Assembly (NCBI GenBank): GCA_964536865.1
Contig: CAZHYN010000004.1
Location: forward strand, 30,001 to 62,000
Direction: 5' to 3'
Source of the DNA: an uncultured Planctomycetia bacterium
GTDB lineage: Bacteria; Omnitrophota; Gorgyraeia; Duberdicusellales; 4484-171
Length of the DNA: 32,000 nt
Part shown: in pieces, positions 4,594-17,408 of the stretch
Layout of the letters: every line of letters starts with the position of its first letter
Numbering within the stretch: the first letter of the stretch is position 1
Made by a program: the position numbers and the translations under genes
The notes under the pieces: generated by a model
What the model was told of the DNA's origin: nothing
What the model saw: the letters and a program-made list of their open reading frames with translations, nothing else
Database searches by the model: none

Positions 4594-5689
4594 ACCTCTA
4601 TGGATAGAGATTAAACTAGGAAATTTAAGAAAGAACTTATCTTTAGTAAGGAGATATGTTGGAGAGTCTGTAAAGATCTTAGCTACCGTTAAACAGAATG
4701 CTTACGGTCATGGTCTTATAAGGATAGCTAAGGAGTTAGATAATTTAGGAGTGAACTTTTTTGGTGTGGGAAGTCTTGAGGAGGCTATAGCTTTGAGGGA
4801 AGCTGGGATTAAGAAGCCAATTTTAGTTCTTACTGCTTTACTTCCTTCTACAATAAAGCTTCTCATAAAGTATAGAGTGAGGCCTACTGTAGTGGATTTA
4901 GCTTTTGCTAGAAGATTAGACAAAGAGGCGAAGAGGTTAGCTAAAAAAGTTGATATACATATAAAAGTAGATACAGGAATGGGGAGATTAGGAGTTTGGT
5001 GGGAAGATGCTAAGAAGTTTATCTGCAAAGTTTGCAACCTAAAAAATCTATATGTAGAGGGACTTTTTACTCACTTTTCCTCTGCGGATACCGACTATTC
5101 TTTTACTACATTCCAGATTAAGTCTTTTAATACTCTGATTAAGGAATGTGCAAAGGAAGGGATATTTTTTAAGTACCTCCATTCCGCTAATAGTATTGCA
5201 CTCATTAAGTACAAGAGCTCGCATTTTAATTTAGTAAGGCCAGGTTTGATTCTCTATGGGATAAATCCTTACTCCAAGATGAATATTGAGTTAGCGCCTT
5301 TACTTTCTTTAAAATCAAAAGTTATATTTTTAAAGAAAGTGGACAGAGGACGAAGTATAAGCTACGGAAGGACCTATATAACTAAAAGACCTACCACTAT
5401 TGCTACTGTAGGATGTGGGTATGCCGATGGATATCCTTTTGTTCTATCTAATCGAGGCAAAGTAATTATAAAAGGAGAGTTCTTTAATATAGTAGGAAGA
5501 GTATGTATGGATCACTTTATGATTGAGGTAGGGAGTAATGAGAAGATAAAAATAAGAGATACAGTTACCCTCATAGGGAAAGAAAAAAATGCTTACTTGA
5601 AGGCAGAAGATTTGGCAAGATGGGCAAATACTATACCTTATGAGATTGTAAGTAGATTATCTTTAAGTATTCCCCGTATTTATAAATAA
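4586..5689 (+). CDS. alr: alanine racemase
   Basis: PLP-lysine motif VKQNAYGHG, full-length TIM-barrel plus beta-domain layout, 367 aa. Confidence 0.9.
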   Translation: MFRPLWIEIKLGNLRKNLSLVRRYVGESVKILATVKQNAYGHGLIRIAKELDNLGVNFFGVGSLEEAIALREAGIKKPILVLTALLPSTIKLLIKYRVRPTVVDLAFARRLDKEAKRLAKKVDIHIKVDTGMGRLGVWWEDAKKFICKVCNLKNLYVEGLFTHFSSADTDYSFTTFQIKSFNTLIKECAKEGIFFKYLHSANSIALIKYKSSHFNLVRPGLILYGINPYSKMNIELAPLLSLKSKVIFLKKVDRGRSISYGRTYITKRPTTIATVGCGYADGYPFVLSNRGKVIIKGEFFNIVGRVCMDHFMIEVGSNEKIKIRDTVTLIGKEKNAYLKAEDLARWANTIPYEIVSRLSLSIPRIYK

Positions 5690-9396: not shown

Positions 9397-9424
9397 ATAG
9401 TAGACTCCATAGTATCTTTTTATA

Positions 9425-11788
9425 ATGAAATTTTTCAAGGATAAAGATTTTCTCTTCCCTTTAATAATTTGGTTTATAATTATTTTCTGGTATTTAATCT
9501 TTGCGTATAGTTTTTTTTACCCTTTTCGTATTCGTCTACAGGATAAACTGAATTGCCAGGCATTTTATGTATTTTCTCATCCTCCTTCCTCTGTAAACAA
9601 AGTAGTAATTGTAGCTATTGACTCAGCTTCACGCCAGTATCTTCAGCTTAAATGGCCATGGCCAAGGAGGATTACCGCTCGTCTTCTTCGTAACATTATG
9701 GAGTTCTCTCCCAAAGTTATAGGATTGGACATTATCTTTGCGGGTAAATCCTCTTCCGAAGATGATGAAGAGTTGCTCAGTGTGTTAAAAAACTATCCTC
9801 ATACAGTATTAGCGTATACTCTATCTGAAAAAAGCTGCGAATATCCCTGGGAAGGATTTAAAAGAGTGGCTCCTTCTTTAGGATTCATAAATAAGCCAGG
9901 AGAGAAAGATAGGGTAGTGAGAAGTATCCGTACCTTCTATATAGATAGAGAATGGAGGACGCATTACTCTTTAGATACCCAGATTTTAATTCACTATTTT
10001 AATATTAAAAAAGAAGATATTAAGGTTGAGCTGGCTAAAGGAATTTTCTTAGGAGAGAGACTTTTTGTGCCTTCATCAGGGGGAATAACTCCTCTTAATT
10101 ACTTGGCCCATCCTAGTGATTTTATCACCGTCCCTGCTTTTTTGGTGTTAAATAAGAAAGTCGACTCCGATATATTTAAAGATAAAATTGTCCTTGTAGG
10201 TGCTACCGACCCTTTGATTCATGATGTTTGCTCTACGCCCATAGGAGTTTTCCCAGGAGTAACAGTCATAGCTAACTCCTTGGTAATGATGTTAAGTGGA
10301 CGTTTCCTCTACTATCTTCCTTTAGGAGTAACTGTTCTTCTTTCCTTGGGTGTAGGTATTGGAATTATGATGATTAATAAGAAATTTTCTTTGAGTTTTT
10401 CTTCGCTAATTACTTTTGTAATTTTAATTTTTTCTTATTTTTTACTTCTCTACTTAAGGGCAAAAGATATTCAGATTGACTACTTTACTTTTTTCTTTCT
10501 AGGAGTTTCTGCTTATTTGGTTCCCAATGTATACAAGTATAGCTATGCCATATATATGGGCACTACACTCAAGAACCTGGCTATAAGAGATCCTCTTACA
10601 GGATTCTACACCTTCCGTTACTTTTCCTTAAAAATTGAGGAGGCATTGAAGGAGAAATCAAAAAGTATAGGATTAGTTATCATTATGTTTTCTAATTATA
10701 AAAAGCTTTCTCTAAAGTTAAGTTTTGAGCACTTGAAAAGACTGGTTAAGCTACTTTCTAATTTTCTTCAGGTGAGTGTCTCTAAGGAATTTAAGCGGTT
10801 CTTCTTCTCCCGTATTTCTGAAGATTCAATAGCAATAGCTCTTTTAGAAGAAGATAGGGAAAAGATAGAAAAATTTTTAAAAATTATGTTAGAGGAGTCC
10901 AAGCATAAAGAGTTTAAGGTGGAAGATTATTCTGTAAAAGTCTTTTTTAGAGGAGTGATATTCTACAAGAGGAAAGGGATTCGCCTGAGCAGAGAAGTTT
11001 TGCTTTCTAAAATAGAGAGTTTCTTGAGAGAATTCCGCAAAAAGAGTGATGAACTTGCTATTTTGGAATTAGAAGAAAGTAAGGAAGAGACAAGGGATAC
11101 TCTTTTGCCATGGGAAAGTTGGGATTTTTTGATTACTGATCTGGAGGAGAGAAATAAAGAATTAGAGAGGGCATTGAAAGAGACTCTCGATACCAAAAGA
11201 GAGACAGAAGAAGCATATTTTGGGCTAATTTATTCTCTTGTCAAAGCGTTGGAGGAAAAGGATACTTATACTCAAGGACATTCGGAGAGAGTGGCTAACT
11301 ATGCTAAAGCTATCGCTGAAGAAGTGGGTTTAGACGAGGAGGAGTGTGAGTTAATTTACAAAGCAGGACTTTTACATGATATAGGCAAAATTGGCATTCC
11401 TGATTATATTCTCCATAAAAAGAAAGAGCTTACCTCCCAGGAAAGGGAGTTTATAAGAAAACACGAAATAATGAGTGTAGAAATACTTAGGCCTATCAAA
11501 GCCTTCCACCGGTTGCTTCCTATAATTTTGCATCATCATGAGCGTTTCGATGGTACCGGTTACCCTTATGGTTTGAGTGGAAATATGATTCCTCGTGGTG
11601 CTCAAATTTTGGCAGTGGCAGATGCTTTTGATGCTGTAACCTGTGGTAGGGGATATAAGAAAGGAATAAGTTTTGAGGAGGCGATTAGAGAATTAGAGAA
11701 TAATAGTGGTACACAATTTAATCCTGTTTATGTTGAGGCACTGAAGAAGGTAATTAACAGGTCTTTTAAGAATGAAGATTTTTCCTAA
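9425..11788 (+). CDS. membrane sensor: CHASE2 domain, TM segments, degenerate GGDEF and HD-GYP phosphodiesterase domain
   Basis: VVIVAIDSASRQYL..WPWPRR (CHASE2). RDPLTGFYTFRYF starts a GGDEF fold, but SEDSI replaces GGDEF. HSERVANYA, LLHDIGKIGIPD and HHERFDGTGYP mark HD-GYP. Confidence 0.85.
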   Translation: MKFFKDKDFLFPLIIWFIIIFWYLIFAYSFFYPFRIRLQDKLNCQAFYVFSHPPSSVNKVVIVAIDSASRQYLQLKWPWPRRITARLLRNIMEFSPKVIGLDIIFAGKSSSEDDEELLSVLKNYPHTVLAYTLSEKSCEYPWEGFKRVAPSLGFINKPGEKDRVVRSIRTFYIDREWRTHYSLDTQILIHYFNIKKEDIKVELAKGIFLGERLFVPSSGGITPLNYLAHPSDFITVPAFLVLNKKVDSDIFKDKIVLVGATDPLIHDVCSTPIGVFPGVTVIANSLVMMLSGRFLYYLPLGVTVLLSLGVGIGIMMINKKFSLSFSSLITFVILIFSYFLLLYLRAKDIQIDYFTFFFLGVSAYLVPNVYKYSYAIYMGTTLKNLAIRDPLTGFYTFRYFSLKIEEALKEKSKSIGLVIIMFSNYKKLSLKLSFEHLKRLVKLLSNFLQVSVSKEFKRFFFSRISEDSIAIALLEEDREKIEKFLKIMLEESKHKEFKVEDYSVKVFFRGVIFYKRKGIRLSREVLLSKIESFLREFRKKSDELAILELEESKEETRDTLLPWESWDFLITDLEERNKELERALKETLDTKRETEEAYFGLIYSLVKALEEKDTYTQGHSERVANYAKAIAEEVGLDEEECELIYKAGLLHDIGKIGIPDYILHKKKELTSQEREFIRKHEIMSVEILRPIKAFHRLLPIILHHHERFDGTGYPYGLSGNMIPRGAQILAVADAFDAVTCGRGYKKGISFEEAIRELENNSGTQFNPVYVEALKKVINRSFKNEDFS

Positions 11789-12380
11789 GACTTTCTTTCT
11801 TTTTTTCTTCCTTCCTTCGTTAATTTTTGGATGCAGTTATCCAATTAAAAACTTAGATTCTCCAGGAGAGATAATAATATGTTTTGGAGATAGTATAACC
11901 CGGACAGAGGGAATTCCTTTAGAGAAAACCTACCCTGCAATTCTAAGTGAACTTTTACATAGAGAAGTTATAAATGCCGGTGTTTCTGGTGATACAACTG
12001 CCACTGCTCTAAGAAGATTAGAGAGAGATGTTTTAAGGAAGAATCCCTACTTGGTTATCGTGGAGTTAGGAGGCAATGATTTTTTAACTGGGATCTCTAA
12101 AGAAATCACTTTAAGGAACTTGGAAGAGATAATCGTTAAGATTCAAGAAGTGAAAGCTATAGTTGTTCTTTGCGATATAAGCTGTGGTTTCATCCTCTCA
12201 GGGTATAGGAAAGATTTTTACCAGTTGGCTAAGAAGACAGGTGCCATTTTCGTTTCTCAACTACTGGAGGGAATCTTAGATAATCCTTCTGCAAAACAGG
12301 ATTATATCCATCCCAATGTTGAAGGTCATAGACTTATCGCTCAAAAAATCTACCAAGTGATAAAGCCCTACCTCAAATAA
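11772..12380 (+). CDS. SGNH/GDSL-family hydrolase lipoprotein (TesA/arylesterase-like)
   Basis: Lipobox LIFGC. SGNH blocks FGDSIT, GVSGDTT, ELGGNDF and DYIHPNVEGH. Confidence 0.8.
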   Translation: MKIFPKTFFLFFFLPSLIFGCSYPIKNLDSPGEIIICFGDSITRTEGIPLEKTYPAILSELLHREVINAGVSGDTTATALRRLERDVLRKNPYLVIVELGGNDFLTGISKEITLRNLEEIIVKIQEVKAIVVLCDISCGFILSGYRKDFYQLAKKTGAIFVSQLLEGILDNPSAKQDYIHPNVEGHRLIAQKIYQVIKPYLK

Positions 12381-12455
12381 TTAAGGTAAATGTCGGACAG
12401 CAGACTTCTAATAGTTTCCCTTGATTTTAGTTATAAATCTCCAGTTCAAAGAAAA

Positions 12456-12497
12456 AGTTAATGAATGTGAGGTTAAACCATGCCGAGGGCGGGAGTC
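12456..12497 (-). repeat. duplicate of the tRNA-Leu 3' end (17 nt, positions 57-73) plus 25 nt of its 3' flank
   Basis: 42 nt match 12807-12848 with one mismatch (AGTTAATGAATGTGAG[G/A]TTAAACCATGCCGAGGGCGGGAGTC on the + strand). Confidence 0.9.
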
Positions 12498-12536
12498 AAG
12501 GCACTGAGTGCTTCGCACTATTTTAACCAGTGCCTT
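12498..12536. other. bipartite stem-loop module W abutting a tRNA-Leu 3' fragment
   Basis: Outer stem AAGGCACTG/CAGTGCCTT (9 bp). Inner hairpin AGTGC-TTC-GCACT next to the fragment-proximal strand. 8 unpaired nt (ATTTTAAC). Confidence 0.7.
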
Positions 12537-12619
12537 CATAGGGACTCTGTCCACTTGAGGCTCGGCTCATAGGAAAAAATCACAGAAAATAACTTCGCCT
12601 CGCTGTCACCCTGAAGTAT
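12533..12619 (-). repeat. about 87-nt segment homologous to 13398-13482, in inverted orientation
   Basis: Minus strand reads ATACTTCAGGGTGACAGCGAGGCG...GGACAGAGTCCCTATGAAGG. Shared blocks with the partner are ATACT, GGGTGACAGC, CAGAG and CTATGA. Confidence 0.6.
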
Positions 12620-12707
12620 TATCAAAGAAGATATTGTTAATAATTATTTTTAGAAGGTATTTAAAAAGAATAATGTAGACCCCAATTCTGACTTTAAAAA
12701 CAAAAAG

Positions 12708-12725
12708 TGCCGAGGGCGGGAGTCG
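12708..12725 (-). repeat. second isolated copy of the tRNA-Leu 3' end (positions 56-73)
   Basis: TGCCGAGGGCGGGAGTCG is identical to 12832-12849. On the minus strand it is followed by CTTTTTGTTTTT. Confidence 0.9.
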
Positions 12726-12726
12726 T

Positions 12727-12761
12727 AACAAATTCGCCAAAGGCGATTTCCCTTATTTGTT
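12727..12761. other. bipartite stem-loop module Y abutting a tRNA-Leu 3' fragment
   Basis: Outer stem AACAAAT/ATTTGTT (7 bp). Inner hairpin TCGCC-AAA-GGCGA next to the fragment-proximal strand. 8 unpaired nt (TTTCCCTT). Confidence 0.7.
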
Positions 12762-12831
12762 CCGACAATACTTTCGTTTCAGAGTTAACTTCTAGCTTAA
12801 AAAAGAAGTTAATGAATGTGAGATTAAACCA

Positions 12832-12915
12832 TGCCGAGGGCGGGAGTCGAACCCGCACAGAGTTACCTCTACCGGTTTTTGAGACCGACGCGTCTGCCAA
12901 TTCCGCCACCTCGGC
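12832..12915 (-). tRNA. tRNA-Leu (anticodon CAA), class II with long variable arm, no encoded CCA
   Basis: Minus strand: GCCGAGG TG GCGGAATTGGCAGACGC G TCGGT CTCAAAA ACCGG TAGAGGTAACTCTGT GCGGG TTCGACT CCCGC CCTCGGC A. All stems pair and the anticodon loop is CU-CAA-AA. Confidence 0.93.
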
Positions 12916-12990
12916 ATTTACTTTATATTATTATCCTACTCCTATTAGTCTTGCTCCTTAACAACTTCTCTCTTCTATTAACTACACGGG

Positions 12991-13033
12991 AACAACTAAA
13001 TTGAGCTTCGCTGTAATAACAGCGAAAGTTGTT
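12991..13033. other. bipartite stem-loop module X abutting the tRNA-Leu 5' fragment
   Basis: Outer stem AACAACT/AGTTGTT (7 bp). Inner hairpin TTCGCTGT-AATA-ACAGCGAA next to the fragment-proximal strand. 9 unpaired nt (AAATTGAGC). Confidence 0.7.
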
Positions 13034-13034
13034 A

Positions 13035-13081
13035 CCGCCACCTCGGCATTTACTTTATATTATTATCCTACTCCTATTAGT
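13035..13081 (-). repeat. duplicate of tRNA-Leu positions 1-13 plus 34 nt of its upstream flank
   Basis: 47 nt identical to 12903-12949 (CCGCCACCTCGGCATTTACTTTATATTATTATCCTACTCCTATTAGT on the + strand). Confidence 0.92.
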
Positions 13082-13200
13082 TCTGTCTATAGGATTTTTT
13101 CTATTAACTAATAATAACTACTAAATTAGTCTTTACCTCTTGACGGAGAAGACTATTTTTTCTTGGTCTCTATTTCTTTATTTGTTCCGGGAACTTTAAA

Positions 13201-13229
13201 ATCTTAGCATTAGCAAAATTCTTTGTCAA
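13201..13229 (-). promoter_or_regulatory. candidate sigma70 promoter facing the tRNA-Leu locus
   Basis: Minus strand: TTGACA (13229-13224), 17 nt, TAAGAT (13206-13201). Confidence 0.45.
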
Positions 13230-13258
13230 TTGACAATTTTTCTGTTAGATGATATATT
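13230..13258 (+). promoter_or_regulatory. near-consensus sigma70 promoter facing the tRNA-Ala array
   Basis: TTGACA (13230-13235), 17 nt, TATATT (13253-13258). The -35 is the right half of the palindrome TTGTCAATTGACAA. Confidence 0.6.
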
Positions 13259-13310
13259 TTAGTTTAAAGTTTCTCCCTAAAGTAGACAGAGCATATAGAT
13301 AGATGAGAGA

Positions 13311-13350
13311 GGCCGTAGTTTCCGCCAAAGGCGGACCCACTTATGAGGGG
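13311..13350 (+). repeat. degenerate tRNA-Ala 5' fragment (GGCCGTAGTT) followed by a 30-nt twin-hairpin element copy
   Basis: GGCCGTAGTT, then TCCGCCAAAGGCGGA, then CCCACTTATGAGGGG. The second hairpin has lost one base pair relative to the other copies. Confidence 0.75.
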
Positions 13351-13397
13351 CGATCCTTGATGGGCCATTTAAAAATAAATAAATTTCTTCTTTGGTC

Positions 13398-13482
13398 ATA
13401 CTCTAGGGGTGACAGCAAGCCGTGTTTAACTACCTCGGATTTACTTATAGGCTTGCGTCAGAGGGGCAGAGCCCCTATGAGG
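13398..13482 (+). repeat. about 85-nt segment homologous to 12533-12619 (inverted partner)
   Basis: ATACTCTAGGGGTGACAGCAAGCCG...GGCTTGCGTCAGAGGGGCAGAGCCCCTATGAGG. It contains stem GCAAGCC/GGCTTGC and hairpin GGGGC-AGA-GCCCC. Confidence 0.6.
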
Positions 13483-13495
13483 AGCGTAAGCGACA

Positions 13496-13547
13496 GGGCC
13501 GTAGTTTCCGCCAAAGGCGGACCCGCTTATGAGCGGGCAGCAGGGAG
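13496..13547 (+). pseudogene. truncated tRNA-Ala 5' fragment (positions 2-22) with the 31-nt twin-hairpin insert between nt 12 and 13
   Basis: GGGCCGTAGTT[TCCGCCAAAGGCGGACCCGCTTATGAGCGGG]CAGCAGGGAG. Identity to the tRNA stops after G22. Confidence 0.85.
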
Positions 13548-13548
13548 T

Positions 13549-13594
13549 AAGTTGTCTGCAACGTTAAGTTGCAGTATTCTTAAATATACAACTT
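13549..13594. other. bipartite stem-loop module S1 abutting the tRNA-Ala 5' fragment
   Basis: Outer stem AAGTTGT/ACAACTT (7 bp). Inner hairpin CTGCAAC-GTTAA-GTTGCAG next to the fragment-proximal strand. 13 unpaired nt. Confidence 0.7.
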
Positions 13595-13658
13595 CCTCCA
13601 TTGTTTATGATGTTAAAGATAGGCTGTCTCTTTAAAATAGAAGCTAAAGAAAAGTGAT

Positions 13659-13734
13659 GGGGCCGTAGTTCAGCAGGGAGAACGCTACGCTGGCAGCGTA
13701 GAGGTCAGGGGTTCAAATCCCCTCGGCTCCACCA
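13659..13734 (+). tRNA. tRNA-Ala (anticodon GGC), intact, CCA encoded
   Basis: GGGGCCG TA GTTC AGCAGGGA GAAC G CTACG CTGGCAG CGTAG AGGTC AGGGG TTCAAAT CCCCT CGGCTCC A CCA. The G3:U70 alanine identity pair is present. Confidence 0.95.
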
Positions 13735-13819
13735 GTTAGATTGTTAAATTCTCATTTTTAGGTGATATAAATGTTTTTATTAATAGATGGTAATTTTTAA
13801 GGTTTTCCAGTAAAATTGC

Positions 13820-13872
13820 GGGGCCGTAGTTTCCGCCAAAGGCGGACCCGCTTATGAGCGGGCAGCAGGGAG
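13820..13872 (+). pseudogene. second truncated tRNA-Ala 5' fragment (positions 1-22) with the 31-nt insert between nt 12 and 13
   Basis: GGGGCCGTAGTT[31-nt insert 13832-13862]CAGCAGGGAG. It is a copy of 13496-13547 offset by 325 bp. Confidence 0.85.
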
Positions 13873-13873
13873 T

Positions 13874-13919
13874 AAGTTGTCTGCAACGTTAAGTTGCAGT
13901 ATTCTTAAATATACAACTT
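13874..13919. other. bipartite stem-loop module S2 (copy of S1)
   Basis: Identical to 13549-13594, offset by 325 bp. Confidence 0.7.
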
Positions 13920-13983
13920 CCTCCATTGTTTATGATGTTAAAGATAGGCTGTCTCTTTAAAATAGAAGCTAAAGAAAAGAGAT

Positions 13984-14090
13984 GGGGCCGTAGTTCAGCA
14001 GGGAGAACGCTACGCTGGCAGCGTAGAGGTCACGGGTTTCCGCCAGAGGCGGACCCGCCTTTAGGCGGGCAAATCCCGTCGGCTCCACCA
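13984..14090 (+). tRNA. tRNA-Ala (GGC) copy interrupted in the T-loop by a 31-nt insert (intron-bearing gene or recent pseudogene)
   Basis: It matches 13659-13734 at all positions except a compensatory T-stem pair (ACGGG/CCCGT) and the insert at 14039-14069 between T55 and C56. CCA is encoded. Confidence 0.7.
14039..14069 (+). repeat. 31-nt twin GC-hairpin element, T-loop copy
   Basis: TCCGCC-AGA-GGCGGA followed by CCCGCC-TTTA-GGCGGG. Same length and architecture as 13507-13537 and 13832-13862. Confidence 0.85.
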
Positions 14091-14107
14091 GCCAATTCCT
14101 TAAAGAG

Positions 14108-14965
14108 TTGTTAAGGTTAGGTGTTCAAGTTTCAATTGCTGGTGGTATCCATTTCTCCGTAGATAGAGCGTTGAAATTAGGGTGTAATGCTATGCAGATA
14201 TTCTCTCGTAATCCACGGAAGTTTAGAAAGAGTTTTCTAAAAGTGGAAGATATAGAACTTTTTAAAAAAAAGATCAGTGGTTCTTCTATCTTTCCCCTGG
14301 TTATTCATACTCCTTATACCTTAAATTTAGCTACCCCTCAAAAATTCCTTCATTGGATTACTACTAAGGAGTTTATCGCTGATTTAATAGAGGCAGACAA
14401 GTTAGGCGCTCACTACTTAGTTACTCATCCAGGCTGTTATAAAGGAACTACTAAAGAGGGAGGGTTAAATCAAGTAGTAAAGGGTTTAAGGAGAATATTG
14501 AAAAATACTCAAGAGGTAAAGACAGAGATTCTTTTAGAAAATACTGCAGGGGGTGGCACGTGTCTGGGATCTAAAATTTCTCAGTATAGATTCATATTGG
14601 AAAAGTTGGATTTCACTCCCCGGATAGGTATATGTTTAGATACTGCTCATGCATGGTGTGCAGGTTATAGGATAAATACTCACCAAGGTTTAGAAGAACT
14701 ACTTCAAGAGATAGAAAAAGAGGTAGGTATCCAAAGATTAAAACTTATTCACCTTAATGATACCCTTGAAGAATTGGGTTCAAAGAAAGACCGTCATTAT
14801 CATATTGGGGAAGGTATGATTGGGAGAGATGGTTTTTCTTTGATAGTTAACCATCCTTTTCTTAAGAACTTACCTTTTATTTTAGAGACACCTAAAAAGA
14901 ACGATAGGGATGATATAAAGAATTTAAATACTGTAAGAGCACTTTATAGAGATGAATTACTCTAA
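14108..14965 (+). CDS. nfo: endonuclease IV (AP endonuclease, xylose-isomerase-like TIM barrel)
   Basis: LGVQVSIAGG, HTPYTLNLA, LVTHPG, ILLENTAG, GICLDTAHAW and IHLNDT. TTG start lies 17 nt after the tRNA CCA. Confidence 0.85.
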   Translation: MLRLGVQVSIAGGIHFSVDRALKLGCNAMQIFSRNPRKFRKSFLKVEDIELFKKKISGSSIFPLVIHTPYTLNLATPQKFLHWITTKEFIADLIEADKLGAHYLVTHPGCYKGTTKEGGLNQVVKGLRRILKNTQEVKTEILLENTAGGGTCLGSKISQYRFILEKLDFTPRIGICLDTAHAWCAGYRINTHQGLEELLQEIEKEVGIQRLKLIHLNDTLEELGSKKDRHYHIGEGMIGRDGFSLIVNHPFLKNLPFILETPKKNDRDDIKNLNTVRALYRDELL

Positions 14966-17408
14966 AGAGATTGACAAAAAGTGGCAAGATTACTGGAAAG
15001 AGATTAGGCTTTTTAACGTTGATGTGAAAGATAAGTCAAAGCCCAAGTATTACTGCCTGGTGATGTTTCCTTATCCTTCCAGTGAGCTTCATGTAGGGCA
15101 TGCACGGAACTATATTATTGGCGATGCTGTAGCTCGGTATAAGATAATGCAGGGCTATAAAGTTTTGTCTCCTATGGGATGGGATGCTTTTGGATTGCCC
15201 GCAGAGAATCAGGCTATAAAACATAATATCCATCCTAAGAAGTGGACATTCGATAATATAAATCGGATTAAAGAGCAACTTAACAGTTGGGGCATTGGTT
15301 ACGATTGGGATAAAGAGGTAAATAGTTGCCTCCCTGAGTATTATAGATGGACACAGTGGATTTTTTTAAAACTTTACTCCCAGGGCTTGGCTTATAAGAA
15401 AGAAGCTTCGGTAAACTGGTGCCCCCATTGTTTAACTGTGTTAGCTAATGAGCAGGTAGTTGGAGGAAGGTGTGAGAGATGCTCTTCAGAAGTAGAGCAG
15501 AAAAAATTAAAACAATGGTTCTTTAAAATTACTGATTATGCCGAAAGACTCCTCAAGGATTTAGATTTATTAGAGGATTGGCCAGAGAGAGTTAAGATAA
15601 TGCAAAAGAATTGGATTGGTAGATCTGAGGGGGTAGAGATTTACTTTCCTTTGAAAGATACCCAGCTTAGGATTAACTGTTTTACTACCCGTGTTGATAC
15701 AATCTTTGGAGCTACGTTTTTAGCCTTAAGCTGGGATCATCCTTTTATAGAAGTTCTTCTTCACAATAACCCTAAAAGAGAGGCGATAGTTAACTTTATT
15801 GAGAAGATTAAAAATCAACCATACTCAATAAGACTTTTGGATAATTTTGAAAAAGAAGGCATTTTTACTGGTAAATTTGCTATTAATCCTATGACTAATA
15901 AAGAGATTCCTATCTGGGTTGCTAATTATATCCTTTCTGAATATGGTACAGGAGCAATAATGTGTGTGCCTGCTCACGATAAGAGGGATTTTGATTTTGC
16001 AAAGAAATACGGACTTCCCATTGTGGAGGTAATTAGAGATTTTCAGAAGGAGAGGGAAGTTACTTTGGAGGAAGCTTATGAAGGGGAAGGTGTTTTGGTT
16101 AATTCAGGAGAATTTAGTGGGCTTAGTTCTCAACAAGCTAAAGAGAAAATTGCTGATTTTATGGAGGAAAACGATATAGGTAAAAGAAAAATTAATTATA
16201 AATTGAGAGATTGGCTTATATCTCGACAGCGTTACTGGGGCACCCCCATTCCTATTGTTTACTGTGATAAGTGTGGAGAGGTTCCTGTTCCTGAGGAACA
16301 ACTTCCTGTCCTCCTTCCGGAGAAGGTTAAATTTCTTCCTACCGGGCAGTCACCTCTAACTTATGTGGAAGATTTTATTAAGACTAGTTGTCCTCGTTGT
16401 GGAGGGCCTGCGCTTAGAGAAACTGATACTATGGACACATTCGTGGATTCCAGTTGGTATTATCTCAGATACATCTCTTCCAAAGATGAAAAGTCTCCTT
16501 TTATTAGGGAAGATGTAAATTACTGGTTACCTGTAGACCAATACATTGGAGGAGTAGAACATGCTATTCTACATCTTATGTATGCACGTTTTATCAATAA
16601 GTTCTTTTATGATTTAGGTCTAATAAATTTTAAAGAACCGTTCAGGCGTCTATTTACTCAGGGAATGATTGTAAAAGATGGAGCAAAAATGTCCAAATCT
16701 AAAGGGAATGTGGTTTCCCCCGATTATATTATAGATACCTATGGCGCTGATACTATGAGGCTTTACATCCTTTTTATTGGTCCTCCCCAGAAAGACGCAG
16801 AGTGGCATGATGAGGGGCTTTTAGGCTGTTTTCGATTTATAGGTAGAGTGTTAAGACTTCTGGATTTATTTTCTCAGTATAAAGAAATTGATGTTGATAA
16901 AGATAATCCCCATCAAAAGTTACTCCTTAGAAAAATGCATCACACAATTAAGGAAGTTACCCAAGATTTGGAAGGCAATTTTCAATTTAATACTGCTATA
17001 AGTAAGATTATGGAATTAGTGAATCAGATATACAAGTCTTTAGATACCGCACAAATCAGTAAAGAGTTATTTCGTCAGGCAATAGATACCGTATTTTTGC
17101 TTTTGGCTCCTTTTACTCCCCATATAAGCGAAGAGGCAAATAAAGCTTTAGGCAATTCCGGTTCTATTTTTCATAGAAATTGGCCTATTTATGAGCCTAA
17201 GTATCTAGAACAGGAGGAGACAGAGATTGCTATTCTTATCGATGGAAAATTGAGAGCTCACCTTAAGATAAATACTACCTGGAGTGAAAAAAAAGTAGTA
17301 GAGGAAGCCCTCTCTTTAGAGAAAGTAAAAAATTATCTTAAAGGCACCCTTCCTAAAAAAACCTTCTACGTAAGAAATAAAGTTCTTAATCTCGTTACTA
17401 AGAAATGA
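14952..17408 (+). CDS. leuS: leucyl-tRNA synthetase
   Basis: HIGH motif (HVGHARNY), KMSKS motif (KMSKSKGN), CP1 editing insert and zinc-binding CxxC pairs. 818 aa. Confidence 0.95.
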   Translation: MNYSKEIDKKWQDYWKEIRLFNVDVKDKSKPKYYCLVMFPYPSSELHVGHARNYIIGDAVARYKIMQGYKVLSPMGWDAFGLPAENQAIKHNIHPKKWTFDNINRIKEQLNSWGIGYDWDKEVNSCLPEYYRWTQWIFLKLYSQGLAYKKEASVNWCPHCLTVLANEQVVGGRCERCSSEVEQKKLKQWFFKITDYAERLLKDLDLLEDWPERVKIMQKNWIGRSEGVEIYFPLKDTQLRINCFTTRVDTIFGATFLALSWDHPFIEVLLHNNPKREAIVNFIEKIKNQPYSIRLLDNFEKEGIFTGKFAINPMTNKEIPIWVANYILSEYGTGAIMCVPAHDKRDFDFAKKYGLPIVEVIRDFQKEREVTLEEAYEGEGVLVNSGEFSGLSSQQAKEKIADFMEENDIGKRKINYKLRDWLISRQRYWGTPIPIVYCDKCGEVPVPEEQLPVLLPEKVKFLPTGQSPLTYVEDFIKTSCPRCGGPALRETDTMDTFVDSSWYYLRYISSKDEKSPFIREDVNYWLPVDQYIGGVEHAILHLMYARFINKFFYDLGLINFKEPFRRLFTQGMIVKDGAKMSKSKGNVVSPDYIIDTYGADTMRLYILFIGPPQKDAEWHDEGLLGCFRFIGRVLRLLDLFSQYKEIDVDKDNPHQKLLLRKMHHTIKEVTQDLEGNFQFNTAISKIMELVNQIYKSLDTAQISKELFRQAIDTVFLLLAPFTPHISEEANKALGNSGSIFHRNWPIYEPKYLEQEETEIAILIDGKLRAHLKINTTWSEKKVVEEALSLEKVKNYLKGTLPKKTFYVRNKVLNLVTKK

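Follow-up and report, generated by a model that had tools for sequence, protein, structure and literature searches.

The gene for tRNA-Leu(CAA) in this DNA of an uncultured Omnitrophota bacterium stands, intact, among copies of its own two ends, and with moderate confidence we take these copies to be units of tandem arrays that arose and changed through local duplication and unequal recombination. The window referred to throughout is the whole stretch of 32,000 nucleotides that was analysed, and L numbers are our own handles for the contigs and genomes compared with it. The duplication and unequal recombination of the units are what we infer; the anatomy of the locus, its conservation across a clade, the variation in copy number, the tracking of the gene by its fragments, the covariation within the hairpins and the absence of a recombinase were all observed. 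An intact gene nested among copies of its own ends and flanks was what the earlier note had described, and every piece of that description was found again in its place (Table 1); for the outer 3' repeat the copy itself was confirmed and the accompanying flank proved to be 41 nt long, not the 25 nt claimed. Every tRNA-Leu fragment adjoins a hairpin module.

Table 1. Pieces of the tRNA-Leu and tRNA-Ala loci, in window coordinates.
Feature	Position	Strand	Remarks
Outer 3' repeat: last 17 nt of tRNA-Leu (12481-12497) and 41 nt of 3' flank	12440-12497	minus	
Block W	12498-12707	minus	adjoins the last 3' fragment via the W-type element
W-type element in block W	12520-12665	minus	extended -10-like motif and structured segment of ~130 nt
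Middle 3' fragment: tRNA-Leu end from T-loop to discriminator, 18 nt	12708-12725	minus	T-rich run after it
Trailer: 3' flank with hairpin 1, then module Y	12726-12830	minus	97% identity to L001
Intact tRNA-Leu(CAA)	12831/12832-12915/12916	minus	ARAGORN; Rfam tRNA model, 57.3 bits
Proximal 34-nt 5' flank of intact tRNA-Leu	12916-12949	minus	
Insert between 5' repeats: module X and 35-nt spacer	12950-13034	minus	
Module X	about 12985-13034	minus	tRNA nt 10-13 from the distal fragment contribute to its closing stem
Distal 5' repeat (34 nt of 5' flank and Leu nt 1-13)	13035-13081	minus	47/47 identity to 12903-12949
Leu nt 1-13 of distal 5' repeat, GCCGAGGTGGCGG	13035-13047	minus	
Degenerate third upstream unit and leader	13082-13200	minus	weak homology to X unit
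Back-to-back sigma-70-like promoters	13201-13258		one toward tRNA-Leu (-), the other toward tRNA-Ala (+)
Block upstream of tRNA-Ala	13311-13658	plus	
Ala nt 3-12 and double hairpin	13311-13350	plus	
W-type element in Ala block	13356-13497	plus	
Ala nt 2-12, double hairpin and nt 13-22	13496-13547	plus	
Decayed tRNA-Ala body with leader	13548-13658	plus	aligns to tRNA-Ala body, z = 3.5, p about 0.003
Intact tRNA-Ala(GGC)	13659-13734	plus	ARAGORN; Rfam tRNA model, 66.9 bits
Second copy of Ala fragment, leader and tRNA-Ala	13821-14092	plus	218-nt repeat, 99% identity
Interrupted second tRNA-Ala	13984-14090	plus	Rfam tRNA model, 49.3 bits; 36-nt T-loop insertion
Double hairpin in T-loop of second tRNA-Ala	14039-14069	plus	30-31 nt, at GGGTT^CAAAT

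The two 5' repeats (12903-12949 and 13035-13081) are spaced 132 nt apart, and weaker homology continues for about 30 nt farther upstream, where the degenerate third unit follows. On the other side of the gene, the 3' repeats 12440-12497 and 12791-12848 are 90% identical over 58 nt, and the homology of the outer one reaches weakly into the variable arm, with an extended alignment score of 88. The middle 3' fragment is identical to the tRNA-Leu end in 21 of 22 aligned columns, with one 1-nt gap. It is clear that these similarities exceed chance, as the repeats have local-alignment scores of 96, 88 and 37 and the maximum over 200 shuffles was 28. The 3' fragments sit 106 and 334 nt from the 3' end of the gene, the inserts between fragments measure 65-210 nt, and the identity of the 3' repeats runs 41-52 nt into the chromosomal 3' flank.

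The units have the form repeat-insert-repeat with a non-local hairpin module as the insert and are not plain head-to-tail duplications, which agrees in spirit with the earlier note. The X stem, GCGG.AACAAC/GTTGTT.CCCG, is kept in 7/7 units from 4-5 lineages; 98.7% of its cells are paired, a share that sliding the partners lowers to 64% or less, and two of its pairs show compensatory changes. The insert that carries X shares 96% identity with L001. The Y stem, GUCG.AACAAAU/AUUUGUU.CGAC, is kept in all five sequences (5/5), and the whole Y structure has six compensatory pairs, the observed values being reached by 0/500 shuffles; a decayed 30-nt double hairpin (77% identity to the double hairpin) lies inside Y at about 12732-12762. 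The W-type element in block W is homologous (nhmmer, E values 1e-27 to 9e-42) to 13356-13497 on the plus strand, to L001 and L155, and to L168, where it forms the leader of the intact tRNA-Leu; in the window it stands before truncated or decayed copies. When all fetched sequence (1.3 Mb) was searched with a profile of the element, the only matches lay at this locus and at its orthologues. Scans with Rfam at gathering and permissive thresholds gave no family for the modules, only the tRNAs, a sub-threshold permuted-tmRNA match and a few chance hits. Module X was also tried as a decayed tRNA-Leu body and rejected, the alignment not being significant in the window (z = -2.8) or in L169 and marginal in L004 (z = 1.7), while the tRNA-Ala fragment is significant by the same test (z = 3.5). 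For comparison with MITEs (terminal inverted repeats, a short target-site duplication and many dispersed copies), X and Y carry inverted-repeat stems, and their flanks are tRNA-end repeats of 13-76 nt, not short duplications.

The layout is common to related Omnitrophota with 60-84% identity in their nfo or SGNH proteins (L001, L165, L004 and L169, and L003 for the 3' side only), and this synteny comparison contradicts the idea of an insertion unique to this tRNA-Leu. There is one extra 5' unit in the window (plus the degenerate one), two in L001, two in L155, one in L165, three in L004 and one in L169, numbers that come from metagenome assemblies in which repeats may be collapsed. The 3' side of L165 consists of two regular 123-nt tandem units, each headed by a 3' fragment, and the 5' side of L004 of three ~130-nt tandem units that begin every 133 nt, two of these units being identical. 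In L169 an X-like arm accompanies the 5' fragment, and a degenerate Y accompanies a decayed 3' fragment; L003 shows Y and a 3' fragment but lacks the 5' module. L001 and L165 are 98.6% identical, yet they differ by one X unit and by a 355-nt block at tRNA-Ala. The loci of three further SGNH homologues (P0003, P0012 and P0025) were uninformative because synteny with tRNA-Leu is not kept there, and no exact products are on record for the small ORFs of the region or for nfo.

The fragments match the tRNA of their own lineage. The Leu nt 1-13 fragment, like its gene, reads GCCGAGGTGGCGG in the window and GCCGGGATGGCGG in L169, and the Ala D-loop, in gene and fragments alike, reads CAGCAGGGAG in the window and CAGTTGGGAG in L001; the tRNA-Ala of L168 has GGGGCT, and here too the fragments follow. 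In L169 fragment and gene share only 16 nt (TTT and nt 1-13), which is short for gene conversion by RecA. A census of 73 distinct tRNA genes from all fetched loci, with the first, middle and last 13 nt of each tested, found extra copies of the first 13 nt for 12 genes (upstream in 11 of the 12) and of the last 13 nt for 10 genes, all downstream; the middle 13 nt were copied for only 4. The exception upstream is the tRNA-Ala of the window, where the first-13-nt copies stem from its downstream duplicate. Units similar to the repeat-insert-repeat ones of Leu and Ala were also found at Pro, Arg, Ser and Leu(GAG) genes on unrelated metagenome contigs.

In the arrays that we propose, an upstream unit comprises 5' flank, tRNA nt 1-13 and hairpin X, and a downstream unit hairpin Y, the last 17-18 nt and 3' flank; the outermost 3' piece may be the remnant of a further gene copy with its own W-type promoter and leader. 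Such units could have come from local duplications that ran from a point within the gene, in the region of the D-loop or T-loop, to a point in the flank. Tandem duplication would always keep one gene intact, and for this reason truncated 5' pieces would pile up upstream and 3' pieces downstream. Units would then be gained, lost and homogenised via unequal recombination and gene conversion, which would be why the fragments track the functional gene and why copy number differs in close relatives, and the junction hairpins would be conserved leader and trailer structures. Repeats well above chance and the same pieces in the loci of relatives favour these arrays. Against them stands the apparent lack of recognisable neighbouring copies of the X and Y inserts, as plain tandem duplication would be expected to yield no inserts of this kind.

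The two back-to-back promoters agree with the consensus in 11/12 and 10/12 positions and have the palindrome TTGTCAATTGACAA in common. This stretch is 60/60 identical to L001, and the palindrome is kept in L003-L006, L168 and L169. Since the pieces lie within transcription units set by these predicted conserved promoters, all tRNA-Leu pieces most likely belong to the leader and trailer of the pre-tRNA. The modules of the window are 94-100% identical to those of L001, compared with 72% at four-fold degenerate sites of neighbouring genes and 56% in 13082-13200, the only neutral-looking stretch. This difference, together with the compensatory changes in X and Y, points to selection on the modules, which would then not be passive remnants. 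For the Y region the conservation argument is weakened because L001 is nearer there to the window (97%) than to the conspecific L165 (about 89%), a pattern that suggests paralogous units or gene flow.

The block upstream of the neighbouring tRNA-Ala is a clean indel of 355 nt, which L001 and L155 have and L165 lacks. Its borders are formed by the 12-nt repeat GGGGCCGTAGTT, which is nt 1-12 of tRNA-Ala, and therefore the gene stays intact with or without it. Because the window, an outgroup, has the block, a deletion between the 12-nt repeats most likely removed it from L165, which is probably not an empty target site. In L168 the tRNA-Ala fragment is present without the double hairpin, so the duplication there is older than the double hairpin. 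The speculation in the earlier note about a miniature element that brings its own tRNA copy is not supported for tRNA-Leu; its spirit survives at tRNA-Ala, in the indel and in the double hairpin that occupies a T-loop beside an intact gene.

The 30-nt double hairpin is a truly mobile element. Four copies occur in the window, where none is expected by chance, and it is present in at least 120 metagenome contigs, which have 31-69% GC and come from many environments; strains L039 and L040 have an extra copy in block W, at about 12556. About 75% of copies are preceded by T at -1 and -2. Within long stop-free frames 30/35 copies are in phase 0, where they encode SAKGGPASGG or PA(E/K/R)GGSASGG, and the ORFs around four copies have Pfam domains of GyrB, DnaG, ATP synthase beta and TopA. 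The double hairpin also lies in the D-, anticodon- or T-loops of tRNAs beside intact copies of the same tRNA (L054, L098, L109, L115 and L125), and the junction hairpins would also be places where a palindromic mobile element of very small size inserts. The window encodes no candidate transposase for it (such as a RAYT), and we know of none associated with it. Literature searches with the DNA string CCGCCAAAGGCGG or the peptide GGPASGG, and for Omnitrophota repeats, returned nothing relevant. REP and REPIN elements are small palindromic repeats (PMC3116915, PMC3733652), and Rickettsia palindromic elements reside in frame within protein genes (PMC1166351, PMC10969869). Like them, the double hairpin is short, GC-rich, dispersed, strain-variable and tolerated inside genes, and as a dispersed, strain-polymorphic short hairpin in frame within protein genes it is REP/RPE-like; unlike them, it measures only 30 nt, consists of two hairpins and also occurs in tRNA loops. 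If indeed undescribed, it would rank with the smallest known elements that look mobile.

In other assemblies the short-read contigs stop at 12690, 12711, 12727, 13839 and 14003, and no independent contig of the exact window strain spans 12712-13838; therefore the exact unit copy numbers in the window could be mis-assembled. The same gap, and the contig ends of other assemblies inside or beside the repeats, might be taken to mean that the repeat region as such is chimeric or mis-joined, and yet this is extremely unlikely. Up to the break points independent contigs match base for base (the Logan contig L038 with about 100% identity over 9413-12711, the ENA and Logan contigs L162-L164 with 100% identity from 13839 and 14003 onward), and three other genomes (L001, L155 and L165) have the same order of fragments and modules, L165 on a single contig that spans from the SGNH hydrolase gene to nfo. 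The reading of the T-loop-to-3'-end repeats as the scar of a tyrosine integrase, which the earlier note had raised, is not borne out here. Decayed islands or prophages, repeatedly integrated into the tRNA-Leu 3' end, would explain why the 3' fragments run from T-loop to discriminator, the usual extent of the att identity block; they are very improbable all the same, and as a reading already largely ruled out. Pfam scans of the ORFs found no integrase, transposase or reverse transcriptase encoded in the 32-kb window, and only housekeeping genes, with no recombinase or island cargo, turned up among these ORFs and in the L162 gene list. To our knowledge, tRNA-targeting tyrosine integrases do not leave 5'-end fragments upstream, as are present here. 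Tyrosine-integrase islands have a regenerated target tRNA and a displaced 3' fragment (Islander database, PMC4383910). The present locus shares with them an intact gene followed by direct repeats of its T-loop-to-3'-end segment; unlike them, it has no integrase beside the tRNA and no kilobase insert, merely 53-210 nt between fragments, its repeat identity continues into the chromosomal flank (41-52 nt), its units are regular (123 nt in L165), and spacing and modules are kept across lineages.

Alternatively, the pieces may form a functional pre-tRNA architecture, which we consider rather unlikely. Here the 5' leader copy and the 3' trailer copy would act as pseudo-acceptor strands, with X in the leader as an extended D-arm-like hairpin and hairpin Y preceding the trailer 3' copy; the fragments would pair mutually, in 11 bp interrupted by a 2-nt bulge, or with strands of the tRNA itself. 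The resulting minihelix around the tRNA would guide or regulate processing by RNase P, RNase Z or other nucleases, or give rise to small RNAs, as the tyrT repeats of E. coli do with RttR. The placement of every piece downstream of conserved predicted promoters, the high identity of the modules to L001 relative to the four-fold sites and the adjacent neutral stretch, the stems of X and Y kept via compensatory changes, and the L169 fragment that follows its gene though just 16 nt are common to both are consistent with such a role. Furthermore, in the predicted MFE and centroid folds of the 351-nt precursor (z-scores of -3.7 in the window and -6.1 in L165) the distal 5' fragment pairs with the trailer 3' fragment around the cloverleaf. 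The fragments are copies of an acceptor stem, however, so complementarity is expected and the predicted helix is not independent evidence; moreover the 5' and 3' modules occur singly (3' only in L003, the 3' fragment decayed in L169), copy number differs between near-identical genomes and no Rfam family matches. It is also improbable that the inserts X, Y, the double hairpin and the W-type element are footprints of very small non-autonomous mobile elements in tRNA D-/T-loops, the gene being regenerated by a carried displaced end or by a long target duplication. The repeat-insert-repeat form with non-local inserts would fit, as would the clean Ala indel bounded by tRNA nt 1-12 in genomes that are 98.6% identical and the strain-variable double hairpin with its many contigs and its places in tRNA loops of unrelated contigs. 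In L168, though, the duplication is older than the double hairpin; the outgroup has the Ala block, which makes L165 most likely a deletion; X and Y are at orthologous positions over deep lineages and not scattered; the W-type element is confined to this locus; and there is no enzyme candidate, circles of 65-130 bp being implausible integrase substrates. Equally improbable is the proposal that the Leu and Ala units are footprints of a new kind of very small, non-autonomous hairpin element with the double hairpin as its smallest member; it would insert at loop positions of tRNA genes and keep them whole by duplicating the displaced gene end or bringing it along.

As tandem arrays, the tRNA-Leu pieces resemble the repeats at E. 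coli tyrT more closely than they do the scar that a mobile island leaves. At E. coli tyrT/tyrV, 178-bp units occur ~3 times downstream of tRNA-Tyr, and the small RNA RttR and the gene tpr are annotated inside them; the K-12 sequence downstream of tyrV, which was re-checked, has 178-nt-spaced repeats that overlap the tRNA-Tyr 3' end, with its last 19 nt in each unit. For the tRNA-Leu arrays we know of no small RNA or ORF product. The tyrT repeats were reportedly first described by Egan and Landy in 1978, Rossi et al. in 1981 and Boesl and Kersten in 1991. In both systems tandem units lie directly 3' of the tRNA gene and inside its transcription unit, which here is predicted from the promoters, each with the T-loop-to-3'-end segment, the first unit overlaps the gene and there is no recombinase. 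The window has two 3' copies and L165 two 123-nt units, each with the tRNA 3' end, and copy number varies between relatives, where assembly collapse is possible. Unlike tyrT, with its 178-bp units, the arrays here are on both sides of the gene, with 5'-end fragments upstream, shorter units (123-132 nt) and a conserved hairpin at each junction, and the layout is clade-wide with fragments that match each lineage's tRNA. Direct repeats of tRNA ends are routinely read as marks of integrated islands; here they arise and persist across a clade without an integrase, a point of relevance to programs that search for islands and to annotation in uncultured phyla. The locus also raises the question whether bacterial pre-tRNA leaders and trailers use copies of their own tRNA ends for processing or regulation, a role long suspected for the E. 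coli tyrT repeats.

Some other identities were considered and rejected. Split and permuted tRNA genes are known from archaea and red algae; like them, the locus has separate 5' and 3' tRNA pieces beside hairpin-forming sequence, but here the gene is intact and the pieces (nt 1-13 and the last 17-18 nt, without an anticodon arm) cannot jointly make a tRNA. The hairpin with its 17-nt tRNA match also prompted the idea of a homing spacer or guide. A CRISPR-associated transposon homing spacer and an omega or bridge RNA guide were both discarded, as there are no Cas, TnpB, IscB or IS110 genes and the units are regular repeats. A permuted tmRNA was rejected likewise: the RF04321 match at 13707-13828 has 32.5 bits, short of the gathering score of 47, and ARAGORN found no tmRNA; the match is there because the 3' end of tRNA-Ala is followed by the next Ala 5' fragment.

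The intact tRNA-Leu(CAA) gene is bordered on both sides by further copies of its own ends. Local alignments of these repeats scored 96, 88 and 37, whereas 200 shuffles never gave more than 28, and every piece lies where the earlier note had placed it, which bears out the nested arrangement that it described. Upstream of the distal 5' copy, weak homology runs on into a degenerate third unit. The first 13 nt of the tRNA (GCCGAGGTGGCGG, 12903-12915) are complementary to the 3' segment of the same tRNA (CCGCCCUCGGC, 12832-12849) over 11 bp with a 2-nt bulge, and the 5' fragment stops at the very point where the complementarity runs out.

Positions of the repeats, tRNA genes and elements (window coordinates unless a locus is named)
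Feature	Position	Strand	Details
tRNA-Leu(CAA)	12832-12915	-	intact; ARAGORN and Rfam
5' repeat pair	12903-12949 and 13035-13081	-	Leu nt 1-13 + 34 nt 5' flank; 47/47 identical; distal copy 132 nt further upstream
Third 3' copy	12708-12725	-	Leu last 18 nt
Outer 3' repeat	12440-12497	-	Leu last 17 nt + 41 nt 3' flank; 90% identity
tRNA-Ala(GGC)	13659-13734	+	intact
Second tRNA-Ala(GGC)	13984-14092		double hairpin within T-loop, GGGTT^CAAAT
Double hairpin	13321-13350, 13507-13537, 13832-13862, 14039-14069		TCCGCCARAGGCGGACCCGCCTNNGGCGGG; begins TCCGCCARAGGCGGACCCGC; 4 window copies, 0 expected by chance
Extra double hairpin	L039 1245-1273; L040 1200-1228		TCCACCAGAGGTGGATCCGCCTCAGGCGGA; inside W-type element at ~12556
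W-type element	12520-12665 (-); 13356-13497 (+); L168 5821-5959		~140 nt
355-nt indel	L165 4930-4990; L001 560-990		present in L001, absent from L165
Divergent promoters	13201-13258	both	sigma-70-like, back to back
Promoter palindrome	13219-13241		TTGTCAATTGACAA
Leucyl-tRNA synthetase gene	14952-17408		~2 kb from tRNA-Leu

The layout is common to relatives and is not unique to the window; the reading of the Leu pieces as a unique mini-element insertion is not supported by the synteny comparison. L001, the Candidatus Omnitrophota genome with the closest nfo protein (84% identity), and L155, both with ~88% nucleotide identity to the window, carry two extra 5' units of hairpin module X, Leu nt 1-13 and flank, and on the 3' side hairpin module Y, after which the contigs end. 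L165, 98.6% identical to L001 and unbroken from the SGNH hydrolase gene to nfo, has one extra 5' unit and, downstream, two regular 123-nt units of part of Y, the last 18 nt and 3' flank, the W block (12498-12707) being absent. In L004 (nfo 65% identical) three 5' units of ~130 nt start 133 nt apart, two of them identical to each other, while in L169-L171 (SGNH 64% identical) the leader holds the nt 1-13 of its own tRNA (GCCGGGATGGCGG, differing from the window's at positions 5 and 7) with an X-like arm, and a decayed Y with a 3' fragment follows the gene. L003 (nfo 60% identical) has Y with a 3' fragment and no visible 5' unit; upstream of its tRNA-Leu (5100-5380), a long, low-complexity run of short repeats (agctcttag, tcaatagtcaat) stands in place of X units.

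In other assemblies the contigs agree with the window at every base until they break off in or next to the repeats; agreement with L038 reaches 12711, L162 begins at 13839, and L163 and L164 begin at 14003. Since at least six other assemblies have contigs that stop within or beside repeats (12690, 12711, 12727, 13839, 14003), the locus is probably broken up or collapsed in most short-read genomes. Among the assemblies compared, no independent contig of the window's strain spans 12712-13838, and the unit numbers are therefore provisional.

The gene content of the 32 kb is housekeeping (TatD, IF-2B-like, TsaE, a TsaD-family protein, alanine racemase, LptF/G, a CHASE2-HD signalling protein, SGNH hydrolase, nfo, LeuRS, ComEA/ComEC and trehalose metabolism), with no integrase, transposase, reverse transcriptase or Cas gene among the window genes. 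tRNA-Leu and tRNA-Ala diverge from the back-to-back promoters, and every fragment lies downstream of these predicted promoters. The palindrome TTGTCAATTGACAA, common to both, supplies both -35 boxes and is conserved in all relatives examined, without change down to ~50% nfo identity, even in L004, where the pair of tRNA genes has the opposite orientation with respect to nfo; a second role as an operator is possible. Only tRNA-Ala and nfo lie between tRNA-Leu and the leucyl-tRNA synthetase gene, and this neighbourhood is retained in relatives.

The closest known case is E. coli tyrT/tyrV, where tandem units of 178 bp each overlap the final 19 nt of tRNA-Tyr, with the annotated sRNA RttR and tpr inside the units. 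The Omnitrophota locus differs: its arrays flank the gene on both sides, the units are shorter, the junction hairpins are conserved and so is the layout across the clade. We lean towards tyrT-like arrays of tRNA-end units, kept by unequal recombination and gene conversion, as the best explanation. Tandem duplication with one end in the gene would always leave an intact gene and an outward truncated copy, which predicts first-end copies upstream and last-end copies downstream. Among 73 distinct tRNA genes in the fetched loci, a set skewed to contigs picked for the double hairpin, 12 have extra first-13-nt copies, upstream in 11 of them, and 10 have extra last-13-nt copies, downstream in every case; only 4 have a duplicated middle 13-mer. 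The exception is the window tRNA-Ala, whose first-13-nt copies belong to its downstream duplicate. Unequal recombination would make unit number vary between close genomes and keep array units near-identical; L001 and L165 differ in unit number despite their 98.6% identity, and units inside an array are near-identical. The T-loop-to-3'-end repeats had also been likened to tyrosine-integrase scars. In tRNA-integrated islands a regenerated target and a displaced fragment mark the island ends (PMC4383910); here the window lacks an integrase, the inserts are very short, 5' fragments occur as well and the units repeat regularly, which excludes such an origin. The locus likewise failed the tests for a split or permuted tRNA and for tmRNA.

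Local duplication does not fully explain the X and Y inserts, which are not copies of local sequence, the conservation of the modules, or the L169 fragment, which tracks its own gene with only 16 shared nt; these features favour selection, for example for a leader-trailer helix. A functional role of fragments and hairpins in the pre-tRNA nevertheless seems unlikely to us. Window and L001 share 94-100% identity in the modules, against 72% at neighbouring 4-fold sites and 56% in the adjacent 13082-13200, and predicted folds of a 351-nt precursor, for both the window and L165, pair Leu nt 1-13 with the 3' fragment around the tRNA, in keeping with their 11-bp complementarity. However, such pairing already follows from the origin of the fragments, the 5' and 3' modules are also found one without the other, and, because L001 resembles the window more than it resembles L165 in the Y region, the apparent conservation may be exaggerated by paralogy or gene flow. 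Pairing holds in 98.7% of cells for the X stem (at most 64% with slid partners) and in 91.6% for Y, which has 6 compensatory pairs and whose values none of 500 shuffles reached, albeit in small samples of 5-7 sequences; the Y stem covaries in L003, and the outer stem of the X-like arm of L169 shows a compensatory change (AACAAT/ATTGTT vs AACAAC/GTTGTT). Hairpin conservation alone cannot distinguish RNA structure from a DNA palindrome. Still more doubtful is a target-regenerating mini-element that split tRNA-Leu and brought a replacement; the mobile mini-element of the earlier note is not supported for tRNA-Leu but has a real counterpart next door, at tRNA-Ala.

The neighbouring tRNA-Ala repeats the pattern of tRNA-Leu and offers the clearest comparisons. 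The segment preceding the intact tRNA-Ala reads Ala nt 3-12, a double hairpin, a W-type element, Ala nt 2-12, another double hairpin, nt 13-22 and a decayed gene copy of ~53 nt, which matches the remainder of tRNA-Ala better than shuffles do (z = 3.5, p ~0.003). The unit of fragment, leader and tRNA is duplicated (218 nt, 99% identity). The second, interrupted copy scores 49.3 bits with the Rfam tRNA model with a 36-nt insertion and is confirmed by contigs L162-L164; the double hairpin accounts for this copy, not for the origin of the Leu fragments. Its T-stem is that of the L001 orthologue, and the intact upstream copy has a compensatory T-stem change. A permuted tmRNA at 13707-13828 was rejected (Rfam, 32.5 bits, gathering score 47), the match arising because the tRNA-Ala T-arm, acceptor strand and CCA are followed by the next Ala 5' fragment. 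Since locus L168 has an Ala nt 1-22 fragment without any double hairpin, the partial or decayed Ala copy is older than the double hairpin. Ala fragments track the gene of their own lineage (D-loop CAGCAGGGAG vs CAGTTGGGAG; acceptor GGGGCC vs GGGGCT), and L003, L005 and L168 also carry tRNA-Ala 3'-end fragments, behind a conserved hairpin. Upstream of tRNA-Ala, L001 and L155 carry 355 nt that L165 lacks; this block comprises a pair of Ala 5' fragments, a pair of double hairpins, one W-type element and the decayed tRNA body. The indel edges are exactly the 12-nt repeat GGGGCCGTAGTT, and in L165 the original upstream flank adjoins the first fragment. Because the more distant window also has the block, its deletion in L165 between the 12-nt repeats is the most economical reading.

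The W-type element consists of an extended -10-like motif, GGGGTGACAGC, a variable stem, the hairpin GGGGC-AGA-GCCCC and then CUAUGAGG; it has no Rfam match, and one stem shows a five-position compensatory change between window and L001. What follows it directly is always a tRNA or a fragment of one: in L168 the intact tRNA-Leu, whose leader it forms, and in the window the truncated tRNA-Leu 3' part and the decayed tRNA-Ala copy. On the simplest reading, the window copies are remnants of more gene copies, each once with a W-type leader.

The most unexpected by-product of the analysis is that the 30-nt double hairpin is pan-environmental. A decayed copy lies within module Y, and the extra copy in L039 and L040, each with ~97% identity to the window, shows that its presence varies between strains. 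A metagenome scan found it in at least 120 contigs (L042-L161); among the matches listed, 96 of 108 copies are 30 nt long, ~75% have T at -1 and -2, and host contigs have 31-69% GC. In contigs below 50% GC, 30 of 35 thirty-nt copies within stop-free frames of at least 150 codons are in phase 0, encoding SAKGGPASGG or, in the opposite orientation, PA(E/K/R)GGSASGG. Pfam assigns domains of GyrB, DnaG, ATP synthase beta and TopA to the ORFs that enclose four of the in-frame copies; further hosts, recognised by eye only, are GyrA, NusA and a class I aminoacyl-tRNA synthetase. No relevant paper came up in a literature search for the DNA string CCGCCAAAGGCGG or for the peptide GGPASGG. The double hairpin behaves as a very small relative of the Rickettsia palindromic elements. 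In unrelated contigs it sits at the D-, anticodon- or T-loop of partial tRNAs adjoining the same tRNA intact (Leu(GAG) in L054, Pro in L098 and L109, Arg in L115, Ser in L125). Neighbouring pairs occur in L087 and L042, in L101 one copy is nested in the loop of another, and in the GC-rich contigs L043, L059 and L119 it lies in the loop of GTAG-tagged REP-like palindromes.
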